A stretch of DNA of 64,000 nt from Lutibacter sp. Its GTDB lineage: Bacteria > Bacteroidota > Bacteroidia > Flavobacteriales > Flavobacteriaceae. Location: NCBI GenBank assembly GCA_032251275.1, contig JAVVEF010000001.1, positions 46,891 to 110,890 on the forward strand, given 5' to 3'. The translations under genes were made by a program, and so were the position numbers. The notes beneath the pieces were generated by a model. The model saw only the letters and a list, made by a program, of their open reading frames with translations, was not told the DNA's origin and did no database searches. Shown in pieces: positions 560 to 10,216 of this stretch (within the stretch, counting starts at the first letter, position 1; each line of letters begins with the position of its first letter).

Positions 560-2641
560 ATGGATAAAGAAATGAAAAATCCAACTACATCCGACGAGAA
601 CAAATCAAAATTCCCTAACACTACAAAAAGCGAATTGTTAAATCGATTAAATGAACAAGAAAAATTAATTGATTCGCTTAAAGAAATTGAAAATAAATAC
701 CAAAACTTATTCAACAACTCTATTGACGGAATCTACAAAAGCACTGAAGAAGGTAAATTTATTGAGGTAAATGCTTCGTTGGTTGAAATGTTGGGTTATG
801 ATTCTAAGGAAGAATTGTTAAGCATAGATATTAAAACCCAGCTATATTTTGATGTTTCCGAAAGAGACCAGGAATTGAGTAATTTACAGAGAACTTTTAA
901 AAAAAGTGACATTTACCGCCTTCGTAAAAAGGATGGTACTGAAATTTGGGTGGAGGATCATGGAAGAAATGTGTATGATACCCTAGGAAAGGTTATCTAT
1001 TATGAAGGAATTTTAAGAGATGTTTCTGAAAAAAAGAAAAATGATGATGTACTGAATGTATTGCTGAAAATTTCCAGAAAGGCCAATGTCACCTCAAGTT
1101 TAAAGAAATTTGTCCAGTTAATTCAATCGGAATTGGGGCGTATTATTGACACCAGTAATTTTTATATTGCCTTTATCAACAGGGAAAAACAAACAATTAA
1201 TATCCCTTTTATTTCCGGGGAAGAATCTGAGGAGGAATTTCCTGCAGAAAAATCGATGACCGCACATTTAATAAATACCAATAAGTCCATATTTATTCAT
1301 GAAAAAGGCCTTAAAAAATTATTGGATCAACATATCATTAAACAAATAGGACCAATGTCAAAAGCTTGGCTTGGGGTTCCCCTAAGAGTTAATGATGAGG
1401 CCATAGGGGCCATCGTTGTTCAAAGTTATGAAAATAAAAATGCCTTTAAACAAAGCGATATTGAATTGTTGGAGTATGTGGCATCACACATCAGTTTGGC
1501 AATTCAGCGTAAAAAAATTCATCAGGAAACGCTTATCTCAAAACAAATTTTAAGAAAGGTGCTTGACCATATTCCAATCAATGTTTTTTGGAAAGATGCT
1601 GATTCTAATTTTTTAGGTGTCAACGCTATTTCTTTGAGGGAAATGGGATTGGAAAATGAAAGTGATGTTGTTGGCAAATCGGATGTTGATTTTTATGATA
1701 AAATGGATGCCGAAAAATATAGGAGAGATGAGCTGGCCATAATGCAATGTGGCAAGCCAAAATTAAATTATGAGGAATCTCATATTAAAAATGGAGAAAC
1801 AAGATGTTATGTATCCAATAAATTGCCAATTTTTGATGAAAAAAATCAGGTAATTGGCATTGTTGGTACTTCAGAGGATATTACCGAAAGAAGAAAAAAC
1901 CAATTGGAATTGGAAAAATTAACGAACGAATTAAAGATTCAGAATGATACAAAAAACAAATTTTTCTCCATTATATCTCATGATTTAATAAATCCTATTG
2001 CCGGAATAATTGGATTTTCTGAATTGCTAAAAGAGAATTCAGAGGATTTACATCCTGAAAAAATTAAATCTTTTGCAACCATTATTAATAAATCTGCCAA
2101 TTTTACCTTGGCTTTGCTCCACGATTTATTGGAATGGTCAAGAGTTCAAATAGGAAGTATTGAAGCTGAAAAGGAAGATTTTATATTAAGTCATTTATTG
2201 ACACATAATATTACGGGGGTAAATTCGCTTGTTTCTTCAAAAATTATTGATTTAAAATCTGATTTTTCAGAAAATTTGAGCGTTTTTGCAGATAAAAAAA
2301 TGGTTTCTACCATCACAAGAAATTTATTGTCGAATGCCATTAAGTTTACGCCAAAAAGAGGAACAATTACCGTTTCTTCAAAAGAAATTATGGTGAATGG
2401 CAAGAAAATGATAGAAACTGCTATTACTGATACCGGGATTGGAATGAGTGAGAAAAAAGTCAAAAATCTATTCAAAATTGAACATAATTATAGATCTGCA
2501 GGAACCGACAAGGAAGCGGGAACCGGTTTGGGTTTGGTTCTTTGCAATGAGTTCATCGAAAAAAATGGTGGCACTATTAAAGTGATAAGCAATGAAAATG
2601 TCGGTAGCAGTTTTATCTTTACTTTAGAAGCATCTTCTTAA
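560..2641 (+). CDS. Cytoplasmic PAS-GAF-PAS sensor histidine kinase
   Basis: PAS motifs (DGIY...G.FIEVN; IPINVFWKD), a GAF segment (WLGVPL...IGAIVVQSY), H-box SHDLINP, N-box NLLSNAIKFT, G1 DTGIGM and G2 GTGLGL; no TM helix. Confidence 0.92.
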   Translation: MDKEMKNPTTSDENKSKFPNTTKSELLNRLNEQEKLIDSLKEIENKYQNLFNNSIDGIYKSTEEGKFIEVNASLVEMLGYDSKEELLSIDIKTQLYFDVSERDQELSNLQRTFKKSDIYRLRKKDGTEIWVEDHGRNVYDTLGKVIYYEGILRDVSEKKKNDDVLNVLLKISRKANVTSSLKKFVQLIQSELGRIIDTSNFYIAFINREKQTINIPFISGEESEEEFPAEKSMTAHLINTNKSIFIHEKGLKKLLDQHIIKQIGPMSKAWLGVPLRVNDEAIGAIVVQSYENKNAFKQSDIELLEYVASHISLAIQRKKIHQETLISKQILRKVLDHIPINVFWKDADSNFLGVNAISLREMGLENESDVVGKSDVDFYDKMDAEKYRRDELAIMQCGKPKLNYEESHIKNGETRCYVSNKLPIFDEKNQVIGIVGTSEDITERRKNQLELEKLTNELKIQNDTKNKFFSIISHDLINPIAGIIGFSELLKENSEDLHPEKIKSFATIINKSANFTLALLHDLLEWSRVQIGSIEAEKEDFILSHLLTHNITGVNSLVSSKIIDLKSDFSENLSVFADKKMVSTITRNLLSNAIKFTPKRGTITVSSKEIMVNGKKMIETAITDTGIGMSEKKVKNLFKIEHNYRSAGTDKEAGTGLGLVLCNEFIEKNGGTIKVISNENVGSSFIFTLEASS

Positions 2642-2686
2642 TCAAAATCGGTGTTTTTTTTATAAATTGCCGAAAATTAAAATTTT

Positions 2687-3151
2687 ATGGGTGTTACAGT
2701 AAAAAAAATGAACCGATTTCTGATATTTAAATTGCCATCGGCCTATTTATGTGGCGTGCGGTTAAAAGAACTCGATAATGAAAAAACCATTGTTACCGTA
2801 ACACATCGATGGATTAACCAAAATCCGTTTAACTCTATGTATTTTGCAGTTCAGTCAATGGCGGCTGAACTAACCACAGGCGCTTTGGTGATTAAAAAAA
2901 TTAAAGAAAGTGGCAAGCAAATTTCTATGTTGGTGACCAACCACAACGGTACTTTTACTAAAAAGGCAGTTGGGAAAATAACTTTTACCTGTACCGATGG
3001 TCATTTGCTTGATGAGGCTTTAAAAAGAACCATTGAAACTGGTGAAGGACAAACTATTTTATTGAAATCGGTAGGCCTAAATGAAAATAACGAGCAGGTT
3101 TCTGCCTATGAATTTGAATGGAGCGTAAAATTGAAATCAAAACAATCATAA
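2687..3151 (+). CDS. Hot-dog fold thioesterase-like protein (DUF4442/YiiD-like)
   Basis: KLPSAYLCGVR...NQNPFNSMYFAVQSMAAELTTG pattern of Bacteroidetes DUF4442 proteins. Confidence 0.75.
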   Translation: MGVTVKKMNRFLIFKLPSAYLCGVRLKELDNEKTIVTVTHRWINQNPFNSMYFAVQSMAAELTTGALVIKKIKESGKQISMLVTNHNGTFTKKAVGKITFTCTDGHLLDEALKRTIETGEGQTILLKSVGLNENNEQVSAYEFEWSVKLKSKQS

Positions 3152-3216: not shown

Positions 3217-3627
3217 ATGTTATCCAAAAGAGCAAGATACGCTATCAAAGCACTGTTATTCCTTTATGAGAATAAAGAGAAAACACCAATTTCTGCAAAA
3301 TTAATTTCAGAAAATGAAAATATTCCCTATAAATTTCTTGAAAATATTCTTCGCGAATTGCGCCAGAGCAAGATTTTAAAAAGTGAACGTGGCGCAGGTG
3401 GAGGCTATAGGTTTTCAAAAGAGCCAAGCGAAATTACCATAGCCGATATCATTAGAATTATTGACGGTCCAATCGCTTTAATTCCTTGTGTTTCTTTAAA
3501 TTTTTATGAAAAATGCGATGAATGTGACGATGAAGCTACTTGTAAAATAAAAAAATTATTTGTTCAATTGCGTACTGAAATGTTGCCAATACTGAACAAA
3601 TCATTGGTTGAGGTAGAGCGATTATAA
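3217..3627 (+). CDS. Rrf2-family transcriptional regulator with three C-terminal Cys
   Basis: wHTH YAIKAL...IPYKFLENIL...S.RGAGGGY, DIIRIIDGPIA, and CVSLNFYEKCDECDDEATC. Confidence 0.93.
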   Translation: MLSKRARYAIKALLFLYENKEKTPISAKLISENENIPYKFLENILRELRQSKILKSERGAGGGYRFSKEPSEITIADIIRIIDGPIALIPCVSLNFYEKCDECDDEATCKIKKLFVQLRTEMLPILNKSLVEVERL

Positions 3628-3642
3628 ATTTTTTTAATTTTA

Positions 3643-3684
3643 TATCATATAAATTTGGTAGGATAAATATGTTTTATATATTTG
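3643..3684 (+). promoter_or_regulatory. Promoter (-33 TTTG 3654-3657, -7 TATATTTG 3677-3684) overlapped by an imperfect palindrome, putative Rrf2 operator
   Basis: 19-nt spacing fits the Bacteroidetes consensus; TATCATAT-N7-GTAGGATA at 3643-3665 spans the -33 box. Confidence 0.6.
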
Positions 3685-3710
3685 TCGAATCAAAAATCAA
3701 AAACTATAAA

Positions 3711-4793
3711 ATGAAAAAAATCTTTATCTCCTTATTTTTATTGATAATCAGTTTATCAATAAAAGCACAATCCAATGATGATTTAATTAACCTGTTAATC
3801 AAAAATGGTTCTATAACAAAACAACAAGGCGATTCATTGAAAGCAAAATCTTCTTCAGAAAAAAAAGCAAATTTTGTTGAGGTGGGCAGTAAAATAAAAT
3901 TGGCGGGTTATACACAATTGCGTTACAGGCAATTTGACGAACAGGGAAAAATAGATCAATTTGATATTCGCAGAGCGCGTCTTGATGTCAGAGGCGCAAT
4001 ATCCCCACGTTGGAATTATCGTTTGCAGGTTGAATTTGCAAATTCTGTGAAATTATTAGATGCCTACGCGGAATATAAACTCAACGATTATTTGAACGTT
4101 ACGCTTGGGCAGGCCAAAATTCCTTTTTCGCTTGAAAACCTAGCTTCATCATCAAAACTCGACCTTATTGACCGTTCTCAGGTAGTTGAGGCATTGGTTG
4201 GCAGAGGCAAGGATGTTATTGGTAATAACGGTGGTCGCGATATTGGCGTTCAGGTTGGCGGGACTATTTTTAAGTATGAAGGCAGGGCTTGTGTCGATTA
4301 TAAAATTGGTGTTTTTAACGGCCTAGGCATTAACACAGGCGACAATAACCAGCACAAAGACATTGCGGCCAGACTGATTATTCATCCAATTAAAGGGTTG
4401 GATATCAGTGGCGCTATTTATGACGGAGAGGCGAATATTGCTTCGGTAAATTCTAAACGCGACAGGTATGGGTTCGACCTAAACTATAACTGGCAAAATT
4501 GGGTTGTAAGCAGTGAGTATATTCATGGAGAAGACGGCCAAAAAACAAAAGAGGGGTTTTACCTTCAAACTGGCTATTATTTCTTGGATAAAAAATTGCA
4601 AATCGTTGCGAAATACGACACTTATGATGCTGATAAAGCAGTAAGCGACAATGCTTCAACTTTGTATGTTTTGGGCGCAACCTATAATTTCAACAACAAT
4701 GCGCGTTTTCAAATAAACTATACATTTAAAGATGAACAAGGCATTAGCGTGGATAATAATTATGCCGCAGCCCAGTTTCAAATTAGATTTTAA
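3711..4793 (+). CDS. Outer-membrane anion porin, OprO/OprP-like
   Basis: Signal peptide MKKIFISLF (start moved to 3711, downstream of the promoter), FDIRRARL, LLDAY, GQ.KIPFSLE.L.SS and GRDIG motifs, C-terminal Phe. Confidence 0.85.
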   Translation: MKKIFISLFLLIISLSIKAQSNDDLINLLIKNGSITKQQGDSLKAKSSSEKKANFVEVGSKIKLAGYTQLRYRQFDEQGKIDQFDIRRARLDVRGAISPRWNYRLQVEFANSVKLLDAYAEYKLNDYLNVTLGQAKIPFSLENLASSSKLDLIDRSQVVEALVGRGKDVIGNNGGRDIGVQVGGTIFKYEGRACVDYKIGVFNGLGINTGDNNQHKDIAARLIIHPIKGLDISGAIYDGEANIASVNSKRDRYGFDLNYNWQNWVVSSEYIHGEDGQKTKEGFYLQTGYYFLDKKLQIVAKYDTYDADKAVSDNASTLYVLGATYNFNNNARFQINYTFKDEQGISVDNNYAAAQFQIRF

Positions 4794-4840
4794 ACAACAA
4801 TTAAGTAATCAAAAATTCTAAATCCATTAAATTTATTAAA

Positions 4841-5797
4841 ATGAAAAAACTAAATTATATCATATTGGCGATAGCGATAACTTCCGTTTTCGTTTCTTGC
4901 GACACAAAGAAAAAAGAGGCTGTTGAGCCTGCCAGAGTAAGCTTATCTGGCGCATTTGCCTTGTATCCATTGGCAAATCAATGGGCTGATGAATACAACA
5001 AAGCAAATCCCGATAAGCAAATTAGGTTTGATATTCAGGCCGGTGGAGCCGGAAAGGGAATGGCCGATGCTTTGGGCGGCATTGTAGATTTAGGGATGTT
5101 TTCGAGGGAAATTACGCAGGCTGAAAAAGATAAAGGTGTTTGGTGGGTGGCCGTTACCAAAGATGCGGTAATTCCAACGATTAGTGCTGAGAATCCAGCG
5201 CTTGAAACTTTAAAGAAAAAAGGATTGACACAAGCTGAATTTAAAGCCATTTTTGTTGATAGAACCATCACCAATTGGAAACAACTTTCCGGAATTGAAA
5301 TTGATGCACCAATTAAAATATTTACGCGTTCCGATGCCTGTGGAGCCGCAGCAACTTGGGCGGCTTTTATTGATGCAAAACAAGAAGATTTAAAAGGTGT
5401 GGGTGTTTTTGGAGATCCAGGATTGGCAGAAGCCGTAAGCAAAGAGCCTGCCGGAATTGCCTATAATAATATTGTATATGCCTATGACATCAATACAGAA
5501 AAAAAACGTCCGGGAATTGAAGTGATTCCAATTGACATTAATGGTAATGGGACTATTGATGAAGATGAAAATTTCTATGAAAACGTAAGAAATTTACTTG
5601 ATGCAGTCGCAAAAGGAAAATTTCCTTCTCCGCCCGCAAGAGAACTTTATTTTGTGGCCAACGGAAAACCGCAAAACCAGGCGACAATAGATTTTTTGAA
5701 GTGGGTTTTAACAGATGGGCAACAATATGTGGTTCCGGCAGGTTATGTTACTTTAGAAGGAAAATATTTGAAAGAACAAGAAAATAAATTAAATTAG
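4841..5797 (+). CDS. pstS: PstS-family ABC substrate-binding lipoprotein with non-canonical ligand residues
   Basis: Lipobox VSC; PBP2 fold motifs GAFALYP, GGAGKG, GMFSR and TRSDACGA; located in a pstCAB-like operon. The ligand may not be phosphate. Confidence 0.8.
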   Translation: MKKLNYIILAIAITSVFVSCDTKKKEAVEPARVSLSGAFALYPLANQWADEYNKANPDKQIRFDIQAGGAGKGMADALGGIVDLGMFSREITQAEKDKGVWWVAVTKDAVIPTISAENPALETLKKKGLTQAEFKAIFVDRTITNWKQLSGIEIDAPIKIFTRSDACGAAATWAAFIDAKQEDLKGVGVFGDPGLAEAVSKEPAGIAYNNIVYAYDINTEKKRPGIEVIPIDINGNGTIDEDENFYENVRNLLDAVAKGKFPSPPARELYFVANGKPQNQATIDFLKWVLTDGQQYVVPAGYVTLEGKYLKEQENKLN

Positions 5798-5822
5798 TTT
5801 TAACAATTATACGTAAAATCAT

Positions 5823-5852
5823 AGATACATCTCCTTAATTGGAGGTGTATCT
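5823..5852 (+). promoter_or_regulatory. Intra-operon stem-loop after the binding-protein gene (mRNA stabiliser or attenuator)
   Basis: AGATACATCTCC-TTAATT-GGAGGTGTATCT, 12-bp stem with one G-U pair and no U-tract. Confidence 0.55.
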
Positions 5853-5873
5853 TAATTATTAAAAATTATCATT

Positions 5874-6512
5874 ATGGCACATTTAAGACTAGGGGATACC
5901 GCTCCAAATTTTACGGCGGAAACCACCGAAGGAAAAATTGAATTTCACAATTGGCTGGGCGTTAGCTGGGGAATTTTGTTTTCTCATCCGGCCGATTTCA
6001 CGCCTGTTTGCACCACAGAATTGGGTGCAACGGCAAAACTGAAAAACGAATTTGAAAAGCGCAACGTAAAAGTAGTCGCTTTAAGTGTAGATTCTTTGGA
6101 AAGTCACCACGAATGGATAAAAGATATTAATGAAACACAAAAAACAGAAGTGAATTTTCCAATTATTGCCGATCCCGACCAAAAAGTGGCTGAATTGTAC
6201 GGAATGATTCATCCAAATGCATCAGAAAAATTTACCGTGCGTTCTGTTTTCATTATTGGACCAGATAAAAAAATAAAATTGACCATTACTTATCCGGCTT
6301 CAACTGGAAGAAATTTCCAGGAATTGCTTAGGGTAATTGACAGTTTGCAATTGACCGCACACCACCAAATAGCCACGCCGGCAAACTGGCAAAAGGGTGA
6401 AGATGCTGTAATATCTCCTTCGGTTTCAGACGAGGAAGCCCAAAAACGTTTTCCGGGATTCAAAAAAATAAAACCTTATTTAAGAATTACCAAAACCAAT
6501 AATCTACAATAA
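5874..6512 (+). CDS. 1-Cys peroxiredoxin (Prx6/LsfA-like)
   Basis: LRLGD.APNF, W..LFSHPADFTPVCTTELG, YPASTGRNF and ATPANW; single Cys. Confidence 0.95.
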   Translation: MAHLRLGDTAPNFTAETTEGKIEFHNWLGVSWGILFSHPADFTPVCTTELGATAKLKNEFEKRNVKVVALSVDSLESHHEWIKDINETQKTEVNFPIIADPDQKVAELYGMIHPNASEKFTVRSVFIIGPDKKIKLTITYPASTGRNFQELLRVIDSLQLTAHHQIATPANWQKGEDAVISPSVSDEEAQKRFPGFKKIKPYLRITKTNNLQ

Positions 6513-6517
6513 TATAG

Positions 6518-7399
6518 ATGCGAAAATTTATTGATTCATTGTCAAGCGGCTGGATGCAAATTGCCATTTGGTTTGTGCTGTTGCTGCCGCTGATGATTGG
6601 ACTTGGCTTGGTTGTAAAATCAATGCCATTGTTGCAAGAAAATTCTTTGATCGGTATTTTAAGCAGCTCAACCTGGTCACCTATGAGAGGTGACTTTGGT
6701 TTTTTGCCCTTCATCATATCAACCATTTTGGTTACTGTAATTGCCACCGCCATTTCCATGCCTTTGTGTTTGCTTTCGGCCATTCATTTAACCCAATATG
6801 CGCCAAAATGGTTGTTGGGTTTTATGCATTCTGTTATAGATATTTTGGCGGGAATCCCGTCGGTGGTTTACGGCGTTTGGGGAATTTTGGTGATTGTTCC
6901 TTTTGTGGGCGACAATTTAGCGCCATTTTTTAATGCGGAATCCAGCGGTTACAGCATTTTGGCTGGTGCTTTAGTATTGGCGGTTATGACCATTCCTTAT
7001 GTGTTGAATATGCTTATTGAAGTTTTTAACAGCATTGCGGTTGAATACAAAGAAGCGTCACTTTCATTGGGCGCAACTTATTGGGAAACCATAAAATTTG
7101 TGGTGTTAAAAAAAGGTTTGTCTGGTATTCTTTCCGCTTTTGGATTGGGAATTTCAAAAGCATTGGGAGAAACTATTGCTGTGCTTATGGTGGTGGGAAA
7201 TGTAGTGCAATTTCCAAAGAGCGTTTTTGACGCGGGCTATCCTTTACCGGCTCTAATTGCCAATAATTATGGCGAAATGATGTCAATTCCTTTTTACGAT
7301 TCGGCTTTGATGCTGGCGGCATTGCTGCTTTTTATCATCGTTATATTTTTTAATGTTGCCGCAAGGTATCTCATACAAAAAACCACAGTTACGCAATGA
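6518..7399 (+). CDS. pstC: Pst-type ABC permease
   Basis: Multiple TM helices, LAGIPSVVYGVWG, EAA loop EASLSLGATYWET, and ALGETIAV. Confidence 0.9.
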   Translation: MRKFIDSLSSGWMQIAIWFVLLLPLMIGLGLVVKSMPLLQENSLIGILSSSTWSPMRGDFGFLPFIISTILVTVIATAISMPLCLLSAIHLTQYAPKWLLGFMHSVIDILAGIPSVVYGVWGILVIVPFVGDNLAPFFNAESSGYSILAGALVLAVMTIPYVLNMLIEVFNSIAVEYKEASLSLGATYWETIKFVVLKKGLSGILSAFGLGISKALGETIAVLMVVGNVVQFPKSVFDAGYPLPALIANNYGEMMSIPFYDSALMLAALLLFIIVIFFNVAARYLIQKTTVTQ

Positions 7400-8247
7400 T
7401 GAACAGGAAAAAAATTGAAGAACAGTTTTTTAGGCTATTGATGTCTTTGGTCACCGCATCCATCATTTTGGTATTGGTGTATATTTTTTATATCATTCTA
7501 AAAAAGGGATTGCCGTCTTTATCTTGGGATATGGTGAGCAGATTGCCCGAAGGCGGCTATTATTTTGGAAAAGAAGGCGGAATTTTAAATGCCATAATTG
7601 GCTCATTTTATATTTCGGTTTCAGCCACATTTTTAGCTTTTATTATCGGATTGCCGGTGGCGCTTTATATGAATGTTTATTTGGTTCGAAGGCCAAAATT
7701 TTTAACAATGACCCGATTTGTTTTAGACGCTTTATGGGGCGTTCCGTCTATTGTTTACGGAGCATTCGGATTTACCATAATGATTTATTTCGGATTAAGA
7801 ACTTCGTTATTGGCGGGAATAATTGCCGTAACCTTGCTTATTATTCCCATTATGATTAGGGCAATGGATGAGGTTTTGAGAACCATTCCCAAAGGTTTGA
7901 TGGAAGCTTCTTTGGCTCTGGGTTCCACAAAAACGGAAACGGCTTTTAAAGTTTTTTTCAAACAGGCTTTGCCCGGATTTATTACCGCCATTTTATTGTC
8001 TTTTGGACGTGGAATAGGCGATGCGGCTTCCGTATTATTTACGGCTGGATTTACAGATCATATTCCCGAAAAATTGACTGATCCGGTGGCAACGTTGCCT
8101 TTGGCCATCTTTTTTCAATTGGGATCGCCAATACCAGAAGTCCGTGAAAGAGCTTATGCCGCTGCAGTCATACTGATTGCCATTGTTTTCACCATTAGCC
8201 TTACGGCAAGATTGTTATCAAAAAAATTCAAAAAACACCAAGTATAA
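7396..8247 (+). CDS. pstA: Pst-type ABC permease
   Basis: GGILNAIIGS, GVPSIVYG, EASLALG, GRGIGD and TLPLAIF; ATGA overlap with pstC. Confidence 0.9.
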   Translation: MMNRKKIEEQFFRLLMSLVTASIILVLVYIFYIILKKGLPSLSWDMVSRLPEGGYYFGKEGGILNAIIGSFYISVSATFLAFIIGLPVALYMNVYLVRRPKFLTMTRFVLDALWGVPSIVYGAFGFTIMIYFGLRTSLLAGIIAVTLLIIPIMIRAMDEVLRTIPKGLMEASLALGSTKTETAFKVFFKQALPGFITAILLSFGRGIGDAASVLFTAGFTDHIPEKLTDPVATLPLAIFFQLGSPIPEVRERAYAAAVILIAIVFTISLTARLLSKKFKKHQV

Positions 8248-8249
8248 GA

Positions 8250-9002
8250 ATGGAAAGTGCAATTGTAATTAAAAATTTAAAAGTTTCTTCAAAAGAAAAA
8301 TTGATTTTAAAAGGAATCAATATCGAAATTCCCAAAAATAAATTGACGGTGCTTTTAGGACCATCCGGTTGCGGAAAAACAACTTTGTTTAAATGTTTGA
8401 ATCGGTTAACGGATTTATACCCTGAACTTAAAGTTGAAGGGAGCGTGTTTATTGGTGAAGACGATATTTTTCATACCAAACAAAATGTAACAGATTTACG
8501 TCAAAAAATGGGGCTTTTAAACCAAAAACCGTATCCCTTGCCTATGTCTATTTTTAAAAATGTGGCGTATGGATTAAAATTGAAAGGCGTAAAAGATAAA
8601 AAAATATTGGCAGAAAGGGTGGAAGTTTATTTAAAACAAGCCGCCCTTTGGGACGAGGTAAAAGATAGGTTAGATGATTCTGCCACAAAACTTTCAATAG
8701 GCCAACAACAGCGATTGTGCTTGGCAAGAGGCTTGGCCACAAATCCCGAAATCCTTTTGGCCGATGAACCTACTTCCGCATTGGATCCAATTTCGAGCAA
8801 AGCCATTGAAGAAAAGTTTTTGGAATTAAAGGAAAACTATACCGTAATTGTGGTTACCCATATTTTACGGCAGGCAAAACGATTGGCCGATCACGTTATT
8901 TTTATGTACGACGGACAAGTAATTGAGCAGGGAAGTCCCAAAGAATTGTTTGAAAATCCGCAAACGGAAACTTTGAAAAAATATATTCAGGTTGGATATT
9001 GA
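8250..9002 (+). CDS. pstB: Pst-type ABC ATPase
   Basis: Walker A GPSGCGKT, signature LSIGQQQRLC, Walker B LLADEPTSALDPIS, and VTH. Confidence 0.92.
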   Translation: MESAIVIKNLKVSSKEKLILKGINIEIPKNKLTVLLGPSGCGKTTLFKCLNRLTDLYPELKVEGSVFIGEDDIFHTKQNVTDLRQKMGLLNQKPYPLPMSIFKNVAYGLKLKGVKDKKILAERVEVYLKQAALWDEVKDRLDDSATKLSIGQQQRLCLARGLATNPEILLADEPTSALDPISSKAIEEKFLELKENYTVIVVTHILRQAKRLADHVIFMYDGQVIEQGSPKELFENPQTETLKKYIQVGY

Positions 9003-9021
9003 TTTTTTGTTGGTTGTTAAG

Positions 9022-9057
9022 CAAAAAACAGCGAAATTTTTATTTCGCTGTTTTTTT
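9022..9057. terminator. Bidirectional intrinsic terminator
   Basis: CAAAAAACAGCGAAAT-TTTT-ATTTCGCTGTTTTTTT between convergent genes. Confidence 0.8.
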
Positions 9058-9079
9058 GTGAATAATTTCAATCACTGTT

Positions 9080-9721
9080 TTAAACCTCCAAAGATTCCAA
9101 TTCTTTATAGTTTCTGTTTAATTTTTTCAGCAAAATTCCGTAAATAATTCTGTAATAAGCCCATATAATTCCACACATCGCCAACAAAACAACGATTTGA
9201 ACCACAATCATAATGCCCAGAAATTTATCGCTGTCCAAAGTGGCGTTTTTCGGCATCATGTTTTCAATTAAAATATTGGGATGTGAAAACATAACAACAT
9301 TCAAAATAACCGACAATAAAATGTACAAAGCAATATTGTAATACACATAATAATTCACCGTTTTGCGGGTTTTTAAAATGTTTTTCATCAGTAAATTGGT
9401 GCTGTCAACTACCGAAATTGTCTTGTAATTTTTATAAAACAGGTAAATAAAAACAAACACCACAACATAATGCAAAATTTGCGCAATAAACAGAAATGTA
9501 TTTAAATTGAATTTTTCATAAATGGCAAAAGTGCTTTCAGGAATCAAAAGCGTTATCAATCCCCAAAACAAAAATTCTGCCACACAAATAATAAAAATCA
9601 ATTTCACAATCGATGAAGATTTTTTATGGATCAATTTATAAATTTCGTCATACGATAATTTCGGAAAATCAGCGCCTTGCTTTTTCCAATCCTTTTTTAA
9701 GAATTCTAGTTCATCCATCAT
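9080..9721 (-). CDS. Membrane protein, probable ECF anti-sigma partner
   Basis: MDELEFLKKDW N-terminus and four TM helices; begins immediately after the ECF sigma stop codon. Confidence 0.7.
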   Translation of the reverse strand: MMDELEFLKKDWKKQGADFPKLSYDEIYKLIHKKSSSIVKLIFIICVAEFLFWGLITLLIPESTFAIYEKFNLNTFLFIAQILHYVVVFVFIYLFYKNYKTISVVDSTNLLMKNILKTRKTVNYYVYYNIALYILLSVILNVVMFSHPNILIENMMPKNATLDSDKFLGIMIVVQIVVLLAMCGIIWAYYRIIYGILLKKLNRNYKELESLEV

Positions 9722-10216
9722 TTAAGGATTTAATATTGTTTTTAAACGCGTTTTAATTCTGTTCATCCGCACACGTGCGTTTACTTCCGAAATACCCATT
9801 GTTTCGGATATTTCCTTATAATTTACATCTTCCAGATACAAGAAAATCAACGCTTTGTCAATGTCGGACAATTGGTGAATTGCCTTATACATCAGCTTCA
9901 ATTGCTCTTCCTCCGTATCATCGTAACTTGTCGATTCAATCCGGTATAAAACCGAGTCAAAGTCCTGTGTCACAATGCTTCTTTTCGATTTCCGGTACAA
10001 AGTAATGGCCGTATTCAGCCCAATCCTGTACATCCAAGTGCTCAGTTTAGACTCGCCCCGAAACTTCGGATATGCTTTCCAAAGCTGAATCGCAATCTCC
10101 TGAAATAAATCATTGTGGGCGTCCTGGTTAGAAGTGTAAATTCTGCATACTTTATGAATGATATTTTGATTTTGCTCAAATTCAACAATAAATTTATGCT
10201 CAATTTCTTTATTCAC
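9722..10216 (-). CDS. ECF sigma-70 family RNA polymerase sigma factor
   Basis: Region 2 DLFQEIAIQLWKAY...STWMYRIGLNTAI; region 4 LYLEDVNYKEISETMGISEVNARVRMNR. Confidence 0.95.
   Translation of the reverse strand: MNKEIEHKFIVEFEQNQNIIHKVCRIYTSNQDAHNDLFQEIAIQLWKAYPKFRGESKLSTWMYRIGLNTAITLYRKSKRSIVTQDFDSVLYRIESTSYDDTEEEQLKLMYKAIHQLSDIDKALIFLYLEDVNYKEISETMGISEVNARVRMNRIKTRLKTILNP

Follow-up and report, generated by a model that had tools for sequence, protein, structure and literature searches.

The DNA considered here is a 64,000-nt stretch from Lutibacter sp. (assembly GCA_032251275.1, contig JAVVEF010000001.1, positions 46,891 to 110,890 of the forward strand), which is called the window below. 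One operon on its plus strand encodes, in this order, an Rrf2-family regulator, a Porin_O_P porin, a PstS-like lipoprotein, a 1-Cys peroxiredoxin and the transporter components PstC, PstA and PstB. Judging from sequence comparisons, it is likely that this operon specifies a Pst-derived ATP-binding cassette (ABC) importer for sulfate or a closely related sulfur oxyanion. Sulfate itself is the most likely substrate, possibly together with thiosulfate. A preliminary description of this DNA had proposed such a repurposed system, mis-called as phosphate transport, and had suggested a survey of gene neighbourhoods. The survey supports the sulfur-oxyanion reading: genes of sulfate assimilation (cys genes) lie near the transporter in 21 of 157 loci, and a PhoU gene in none.

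Substrate-binding protein

The substrate-binding protein (SBP) belongs to the Pfam family PBP_like_2. It fails both PstS models (TIGR02136, 109.8 bits against a cut-off of 206.6; TIGR00975, 61.2 against 205), and the Sbp and CysP models gave no match to it in an NCBIfam profile search. A sequence search of the PDB returned phosphate-binding proteins only, the best being PBP-1 of Clostridium perfringens (4GD5/4Q8R, E = 2e-17). The AlphaFold2 model of the SBP has a pLDDT (predicted local distance difference test) of 86, and its top 41 Foldseek matches are all PstS proteins, with identities of no more than 24%. Because the PDB sequence matches and the Foldseek matches agree, the modelled fold is assigned to PstS.

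The anion site within this fold is strongly altered. In 4GD5 the phosphate is contacted by the hydroxyls of Ser11, Thr12, Ser41, Ser59, Ser129 and Thr131, by Arg125 and by five backbone NH groups, while Ser13 is the likely acceptor of the phosphate proton (PMC5381212). These residues were mapped by aligning the SBP to PDB entries 4GD5 and 8ODS and applying the published contact list for 4GD5. Ser11, Thr12 and the proposed proton acceptor Ser13 are replaced by Ala38, Phe39 and Ala40, respectively, Ser41 by Ala70, Ser129 by Cys167 and Thr131 by Ala169. Ser59, Arg125 and Gly130 are kept as Ser88, Arg163 and Gly168. Six of the seven hydroxyl residues are thus replaced, and the replacements are conserved, so the loss of phosphate-binding hydroxyls noted in the preliminary description is borne out. 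The position of Asp56 of the classical PstS is occupied by Ser88. The Asp of a VDLG motif had been considered as the equivalent of E. coli Asp56, which would argue against sulfate, but this was rejected because Asp56 aligns with Ser88.

The four motifs that line the site are SGAFALYP (residues 36-43), GGAGKG (68-73), MFSR (86-89) and RSDACGAA (163-170). These changes do not represent decay, because 30 sequences, down to 57% identity, share SGAFALYP, GGAGKG, DLGMFSR and TRSDACGA without variation, and the motifs persist across the whole subfamily, with Phe, Trp or Tyr at position 39 and Cys, Ser or Ala at position 167. About ten members have Ser or Ala at position 167, and an essential role for thiol chemistry at Cys167 was rejected on these grounds. 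An exhaustive search found 169 clusters at 50% identity with the altered motifs (E <= 1e-30), and the canonical type-2 PstS motifs (SGS[ST]T[VL]YP, GGSGKG, M[AS]SR and R..ASGT) return only at 140-175 bits. By sequence, the altered-motif SBPs form a discrete subfamily. In public annotation its members are called 'PstS family phosphate ABC transporter substrate-binding protein' or similar.

What remains of the site, as far as the alignment indicates, is a set of backbone amides, one Ser and one Arg, that is, a donor-only site with no proton-accepting group. The sulfate-binding protein recognises sulfate, as a fully ionised anion, in this way, and it is the proton acceptor that lets the classical PstS exclude sulfate. 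The discrimination achieved by the classical PstS through the hydrogen bond of its Asp is 10^5 (restated in PMC5381212). On its site residues the SBP is predicted to bind sulfate (or thiosulfate).

Several other variants of the protein were seen. A broad set of PBP_like_2 proteins (P0128-P0260) carries other combinations of site motifs, such as SGAYALYP/SSSTKG/MYSR/RSDLCGAS or SGADALYP/GGAGVG. This variety suggests further anion specificities between the altered-motif subfamily and the canonical PstS. Tandem SBP genes are present in three of the loci surveyed below (L029, 8969-10957; L034, 8740-10936; L037, 3732-5717). The second copy in L037 combines a half-canonical RNDGSGET with GGAGKG and DLGMFSR and may represent an intermediate or a second specificity.

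Gene neighbourhoods

Pattern scans located SBPs with the altered motifs in no fewer than 593 species-representative genomes and no fewer than 563 metagenome contigs. The carriers are nearly all Bacteroidota, together with some metagenome-assembled genomes labelled Ignavibacteriales, Neomarinimicrobiota and Omnitrophota. Two samples were surveyed, the 80 genome loci nearest the window and the 80 metagenome loci nearest the most distant genome member. An SBP could be called in 157 of these 160 loci. These 157 are the denominator throughout, and cys and Rrf2 neighbours were counted within a range of eight genes. The constant core of the locus is SBP-pstC-pstA-pstB, intact and tightly packed in nearly all cases.

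PhoU is absent from all 157 loci, and E. coli PhoU as a phmmer query gave at most 7 bits at permissive settings. Ten ORFs (open reading frames) of PhoU size directly after pstB were rejected as PhoU, as they belong to the TauE/SafE, DUF2490, GPP34, DUF5020, MarC and TetR families. Three contigs with canonical-motif PstS served as controls; one was too short, and both of the assessable ones carry a PhoU-domain gene beside pstS. E. coli PhoU detects the control PhoU at 8.6e-8, and the control PhoU, used as a query in turn, has no match in any of the 160 loci or in the window. Taken together, the phmmer result, the families of the ORFs, the control loci and the control query make the absence of PhoU robust. 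The preliminary description had likewise reported no phoU or phoBR alongside the operon, and in fact PhoU, PhoB and PhoR are missing from the whole window. Regulators resembling OmpR or PhoB were dismissed as a Pho link, since the only strong matches lie 6-7 kb off, in two loci.

The genes that do recur beside the transporter are those of sulfate assimilation. The genes scored were cysH, D, N, I, G, C, Q, K and E, with identities checked against Pfam and NCBIfam. They are found near 21 of the 157 loci (P ~3e-12 against a generous null of random placement) and in 14 they abut the transporter on the same strand, mostly with gaps of 12-60 bp. Even when these 14 are reduced to four independent events, the abutment has P ~1e-4. 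There are at least four different arrangements. In L077, L088, L113 and L120 the order is SBP-pstCAB-cysH-cysD-cysN, to which L075 adds cysI and cysG; in L041 it is SBP-pstCAB-cysC-cysD-cysN-cysQ; in L059 and L076 cysD-cysN-cysH precede SBP-pstC-pstA. The longest is Rrf2-cysI-cysG-cysG-cysH-cysD-cysN-porin-SBP-pstCAB in L147 and L151, part of which is found in L144 and L138. No transporter other than the Pst-like system is present in these cys-transporter operons. L077 has the architecture of the window (Rrf2, Porin_O_P, SBP and pstCAB) followed by cysH-cysD-cysN. In two further loci CysE-CysK (L068) and CysK or CysE-CysK (L119) are encoded beside a divergent Rrf2 gene. L026 and L021, whose genes after pstB are described below, also have sulfur-related neighbours and add to the support. 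Sulfate is preferred over thiosulfate and sulfite as the main substrate because the adjoining cys enzymes start from sulfate.

Other neighbours were recorded as well. The gene directly after pstB encodes a DUF2490 protein, a predicted outer-membrane barrel, in L115 (13535-14287), L146 (13599-14270) and L157 (13550-14230), a GPP34-family protein in L062, L150 and L161, and a permease of the TauE/SafE sulfite-exporter family in L021 (13696-14460). Orphan SBP-porin pairs that have no adjacent pstCAB were found in L056 (2395 to about 4800) and L068 (8070-10347). They are followed by an extracytoplasmic-function (ECF) sigma factor and preceded by a Crp/Fnr gene and a divergent Rrf2 gene, and in L068 also by cysE-cysK. 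In L059 and L076, which are from rumen Bacteroidales, no pstB follows pstA, and a PstB-like ATPase is encoded on the minus strand (5198-6073 and 5159-6025, respectively), divergently and upstream of the regulator-cysDNH-SBP-pstCA genes.

Alternative substrates

A number of observations weigh against sulfate as the substrate of the window system. About 85% of the surveyed loci have no cys gene nearby, and neither the 64 kb of the window nor the 40 loci that resemble it most have any. Since the window has no cys genes, its interpretation rests on the shared site motifs, on the architecture of L077 and on the window Rrf2 being nearest to the Rrf2 proteins of cys clusters. The permeases pass the equivalog models for phosphate (PstC, TIGR02138, 252.7 bits, cut-off 196.45; PstA, TIGR00974, 209.7 bits, cut-off 193.45). 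The Arg/acid pairs in the membrane that set phosphate handling in E. coli are essentially retained. Arg220 of E. coli PstA has a conserved equivalent, and all 73 family members have Asp at the position of Glu224; the equivalent of PstC Arg237 is Lys in the window, the family being divided between Lys (37) and Arg (35), and Glu241 is retained. Lys72 and the Ser88-Arg89 pair of the SBP also occur in relatives with canonical motifs. The peroxiredoxin could be a mere oxidative-stress gene inserted at this place. Depletion of Met and Cys, which the preliminary description counted among its signals pointing away from phosphate, is real in the window, where the porin ranks first, the peroxiredoxin fourth and the SBP eighth of 53 ORFs. 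It is not diagnostic, however, and was rejected as a signature of sulfur starvation: E. coli PstS is lower still, at 0.58% Met plus Cys, and the family-wide median of the SBP, 2.5%, is near the background of 3.05%.

PstB falls marginally under its phosphate model (TIGR00972, 324.3 bits, cut-off 343.2). Models of CysT (CysU), CysW and sulfate permeases score 26-42 bits with the window permeases, against cut-offs of 240-415. The Arg/Glu site of the membrane domain had been considered as a substrate discriminator and turned out to be uninformative, being retained as R/D and K-or-R/E; by its residues the site should fit any divalent oxyanion.

The strongest alternative, which is nevertheless unlikely, is a different oxyanion: thiosulfate or sulfite specifically, selenate, molybdate or tungstate, arsenate or phosphite. 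A donor-only and partly hydrophobic site (Phe39, Cys167 and Ala38, 40, 70 and 169) could suit several tetrahedral or pyramidal anions, and thiosulfate, selenate, molybdate and sulfite are possible substrates in spite of the cysDNH linkage. The TauE/SafE gene of L021, the related SBPs with other motif combinations, and the porin, whose best NCBIfam match is ExtI of a selenite/tellurite operon (far under the cut-off of that model), can be read in the same way. On the other hand, the abutting cysH, cysD, cysN, cysC, cysI and cysG are needed for sulfate and not for thiosulfate or sulfite. Molybdopterin, ars, ptx/htx and selenium genes do not recur among the surveyed neighbours, and the Ser or Ala that replaces Cys167 in some members shows that thiol chemistry is not essential.

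An ordinary but divergent high-affinity phosphate transporter, with a hydroxyl-poor site and with its regulation moved off PhoBR and PhoU, is less probable again, and we regard it as improbable. It would account for the PstS fold, for the scores of PstC and PstA and the near miss of PstB, for the retained Arg220/Arg237-type site and for the porin, Porin_O_P being the phosphate-porin family; moreover, PBP-1 of C. perfringens shows that PstS sites may vary. It does not explain why hydroxyl ligands, the proposed proton acceptor among them, were replaced at six of seven positions and the replacements then conserved, nor why PhoU is missing from every locus and present beside both assessable controls. 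The repeated insertion into cysHDN and cysIG operons would also have no rationale for a phosphate importer. The idea that the SBP and porin form mainly a sensor or scavenging module, or belong to a decaying system, with no working importer, finds some footing in the orphan pairs of L056 and L068 and the tandem SBP copies of L029, L034 and L037, but it is very improbable given the intact and tightly packed core in nearly all loci, the strong conservation of the motifs, and the ORFs of the window operon, all of which are full length, with the ABC signatures present.

Regulator and candidate operators

The first gene of the operon encodes a 136-residue protein (3217-3627, plus strand) that passes the general Rrf2 models (PF02082, 119.7 bits against 30; TIGR00738, 106.5 against 73.3), while remaining far below the specific equivalogs CymR (76.9 against 195) and IscR (76.3 against 207.55). 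It contains Cys91, Cys100, Cys103 and Cys109. An Rrf2 gene of the same kind is found within eight genes of the SBP in 48 of the 157 loci. Cys91, Cys100 and Cys109 are conserved in 46 of 49 linked Rrf2 proteins, and Cys103 is usually kept. The nearest relatives of the window protein among the 48 are those of L151, L147 and L144 (49-51% identity), which head the Rrf2-cysIGHDN-porin-SBP-pstCAB clusters. The argument from the regulator type, which the preliminary description had counted among its signals pointing away from phosphate, is supported by the linkage and the closeness to cys-cluster regulators, although the protein has a conserved three-Cys signature of the Fe-S type and in this is unlike CymR. 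From its sequence, the protein is a candidate for a repressor that responds to sulfur or Fe-S and acts on the unit, and we infer that it may bind an Fe-S cluster and that its repression would be lifted when sulfur or Fe-S status falls.

The spacer between the Rrf2 and porin genes (3628-3710, plus strand) contains a promoter candidate, TTTG at 3654-3657 and TAtaTTTG at 3677-3684 with 19-nt spacing, which was recognised by reading the sequence against the -33/-7 consensus of Bacteroidota. An inverted-repeat search detected AT-rich palindromes at 3626-3656 and 3654-3694.

Conserved promoter palindromes are found in relatives. In one clade, with SBP identities of 60-100%, the divergent spacer between the Rrf2 and porin or SBP genes contains an 18-bp palindrome, TTAAGTATTAATACCTAA, that hardly varies. 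Its distance from the start of Rrf2 is about 31 nt, and a TTTG...TAnnTTTG promoter follows directly downstream. The palindrome is located at 8751-8768 in L077 and is also present in L104, L106, L111-L113, L116, L117, L119, L120, L128 and L132. Weaker sites of this kind are present in L037, L048, L064, L071, L080, L093, L095, L098, L107, L121, L122, L139 and L145; in more distant loci such copies occupy the same position. The palindrome is a candidate operator of Rrf2. Some loci that have no adjacent Rrf2 gene also carry a palindrome of this type. A second type, for example ATAGTCGAT-N7-ATCGACTAT, is found where the Rrf2 gene is co-directional, at two places, ahead of Rrf2 itself and in front of the SBP or porin gene; it is present in L160, L141, L149, L163 and L165, beside sigma-70-like promoters. 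The Bacteroidota spacers show repeats like TCTAC-N7-GTAGA and not this second type. A search of the window for both palindromes of the relatives gave no convincing match, and only the AT-rich palindromes and a half-site-like TAAGTCAAT were seen.

A different set of regulatory genes is found in the clade of loci nearest the window, which resembles Marinilabiliales. A HisKA_3 kinase and a NarL-type regulator are encoded upstream in 29 loci, almost all of them in this clade. Among the 80 genome loci, 28 have this pair, a small membrane kinase and a NarL/LuxR-type regulator, ahead of the transporter unit, and Rrf2 is rare in that clade. Examples are L003-L011, L014, L016, L018, L021, L026, L027, L032, L036, L037, L039 and L046, as well as L057, L061, L063, L066, L071 and L074.

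Porin and peroxiredoxin

The porin is an outer-membrane anion-channel candidate of 360 residues (3711-4793, plus strand). The mechanical ORF is 3669-4793, but the true start is probably the ATG at 3711 (MKKIF), because the relatives are called with 360 residues and the promoter-like TTTG-N19-TAtaTTTG lies at 3654-3684. The protein matches PF07396 (Porin_O_P) with 78.8 bits, cut-off 20.9, over profile positions 14-163 of 370 only, and also matches Porin_4. A PDB sequence search found no match to any solved structure, OprP and OprO included. A Porin_O_P or Alginate_exp barrel is encoded within two genes of the SBP in 93 of the 157 loci, and many relatives have the Alginate_exp type in place of Porin_O_P.

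The peroxiredoxin (5874-6512, plus strand) is a cytoplasmic 1-Cys enzyme of the Prx6 type, with AhpC-TSA and 1-cysPrx_C domains and the active-site motif FTPVCTTE; it scores 229 bits with NF009668 (cut-off 211). The LsfA-like nature of the gene, put forward in the preliminary description, is genuine: LsfA of P. aeruginosa (PDB 6P0W/7KUU) matches the protein with 66.7% identity and E = 2.8e-94. LsfA is increased more than 45-fold under sulfur starvation in P. aeruginosa (PMC12581299), and it was named for its induction by low sulfate, alongside an organosulfur ABC cluster. The insertion of the gene into the operon is confined to near relatives. The order SBP-peroxiredoxin-pstC is kept in four contigs of close relatives and in none of the other loci; the sole other, loose co-occurrence is in L026, where a 1-Cys peroxiredoxin and an Sbp/CysP-like SBP follow pstB. 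The distribution points to a lineage-specific insertion, a supportive but not a defining part of the system.

Operon layout and neighbouring genes

The seven co-directional plus-strand ORFs listed in the preliminary description are all present where it had placed them. The gene of the SBP, whose lipobox is VSC, spans 4841-5797. It is followed by a 12-bp-stem hairpin (5823-5852, plus strand), probably an attenuator or messenger RNA stabiliser inside the operon that would raise the ratio of SBP to permease, as judged by analogy to ABC operons elsewhere. After the peroxiredoxin gene come pstC (6518-7399), pstA (7396-8247) and pstB (8250-9002), all on the plus strand. The gaps are 41-76 bp in the upstream part of the operon and 5 bp between the peroxiredoxin gene and pstC; pstC and pstA overlap by 4 bp, and pstA and pstB are 2 bp apart. 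These sizes are consistent with one transcription unit. The inverted-repeat search identified a long hairpin with 24-nt arms 3' of pstB (9014-9065, not assigned to a strand), which marks the end of the operon and is common to the convergent minus-strand genes. The sequence was found only in runs of metagenomic DNA, whose sources were groundwater, aquatic, soil, landfill and mine-drainage samples.

Directly upstream of Rrf2, at 560-3151, and in the same direction, are the genes of a cytoplasmic PAS-GAF-PAS histidine kinase (693 residues) and a DUF4442 protein. The gaps in this stretch are 46 and 66 bp, and the kinase-DUF4442-Rrf2 synteny is kept in the close relatives L084-L087 and not elsewhere. 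The kinase was rejected as PhoR (112 bits with the PhoR model, cut-off 334) and is a generic PAS/GAF kinase. On the other side, two minus-strand genes at 9080-10216 converge on the end of pstB and encode an ECF sigma factor of 164 residues and, downstream of it, a multi-pass membrane protein of 213 residues; the latter has no family match and is probably an anti-sigma factor. L084-L087 also contain, at positions 1-146, a second Rrf2-family gene about 8 kb upstream of the operon Rrf2, which corresponds to a place some 5 kb outside the window, on its left.

Comparison with known systems

The window system shares its architecture and ancestry with PstSCAB (PhoT family, Transporter Classification (TC) 3.A.1.7), including the fold of the SBP, the Arg/acid pairs of PstC and PstA and the PstB ATPase. 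In three features that define phosphate transporters it departs from PstSCAB: its SBP scores under the PstS thresholds, six of the seven hydroxyl ligands are gone, and PhoU and PhoBR are lacking. Systems of the window type are instead linked to Rrf2 and, in relatives, to cys genes, and have an outer-membrane channel of their own.

CysPUWA/Sbp (SulT family, TC 3.A.1.6) would have the same job, namely high-affinity uptake of sulfate to feed CysDN, and the same placement beside cys genes, which is seen in relatives (21 of 157 loci) and not in the window. Sbp recognises its ligand mostly through backbone-NH donors, with no proton acceptor, and the window SBP is likened to it on this principle. Homology at the family level is lacking, however, and the leading fold matches of the window SBP do not include Sbp.

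The nearest evolutionary parallel is CysP of Bacillus subtilis, a permease of the PiT phosphate family that transports sulfate after the loss of conserved Asp residues (PMC5840216). As is proposed here, a member of a phosphate family became a sulfate transporter through the loss of critical residues, and it is encoded in a sulfate-assimilation operon (PMC5840216). Unlike the window system, which is known from sequence, CysP has been characterised by experiment; it is a secondary carrier of unrelated sequence that has neither SBP nor ATPase. A review of sulfate transporters covers SulT, SulP, CysP(PiT), DASS and CysZ/TSUP, and no Pst-type system (PMC5840216). A literature search found no account of a Pst-type sulfate transporter, most subscription journals being outside its reach.

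The accessory proteins also have known counterparts. The peroxiredoxin has the PVCTTE motif and the 1-cysPrx_C domain of LsfA, but its gene lies inside a transporter operon, in this lineage only. The regulator has the Rrf2 winged-helix fold of IscR, NsrR, RirA and CymR, and its relatives have palindromic promoter sites, as these regulators do; it would likewise act on genes of sulfur metabolism, like CymR and IscR. Its best score is 77 bits, against equivalog cut-offs of 195-208. Its three conserved C-terminal Cys residues recall the cluster ligands of IscR and NsrR and are lacking in CymR, and their spacing is C-x8-C-x8-C, compared to C-x5-C-x5-C in IscR. The porin resembles OprP and OprO in its Porin_O_P membership and in its co-transcription with an anion ABC importer, but its profile match is partial and no similarity to the solved structures is detectable.

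Proposed mechanism and implications

The anion would enter through a dedicated anion-selective outer-membrane barrel, Porin_O_P here and of the Alginate_exp type in many relatives. The lipoprotein SBP would then hold it in the PstS-type cleft by backbone NH groups, Ser88 and Arg163; such a donor-only site, in which the acceptor of the HPO4(2-) proton has been replaced, would suit sulfate. Translocation would be carried out by PstC and PstA, which keep the cationic membrane site, together with PstB. The three-Cys Rrf2 probably represses the unit as long as sulfur or Fe-S status is adequate. In the lineage of the window, the co-transcribed LsfA-type peroxiredoxin may serve as an antioxidant accompanying sulfur limitation.

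For the family as a whole, we lean slightly towards the view that the Pst-like system with SGA[FWY]ALYP and RSDACGAA serves as the principal high-affinity ABC importer of sulfate in Bacteroidota, Ignavibacteriota and neighbouring phyla, equipped with an outer-membrane anion channel of its own and with a three-Cys Rrf2 regulator, not described before, that responds to sulfur status at conserved palindromic operators. If this is true, Bacteroidota and their relatives gain a high-affinity sulfate uptake system that had been missing, and a new Pst-derived family takes its place beside SulT, SulP, CysP(PiT), DASS and CysZ/TSUP. The SBP would be a natural experiment in anion discrimination, in which about six substitutions on the PstS scaffold convert a hydroxyl-rich, proton-accepting site into a donor-only one, and it would be useful for understanding and engineering phosphate/sulfate selectivity. 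The three-Cys Rrf2 and the palindromic sites may provide an entry to the poorly known regulation of sulfur metabolism in Bacteroidota. Phosphate stress is commonly inferred from pstS and pstCAB in metagenomic and metatranscriptomic studies. The phosphate annotation of the subfamily would bias such inferences, notably in the sediments, groundwater, wetlands and digesters that its carriers inhabit, and thousands of 'pstS/pstCAB' calls, whether genomic, metagenomic or metatranscriptomic, would reflect sulfur, and not phosphorus, physiology.

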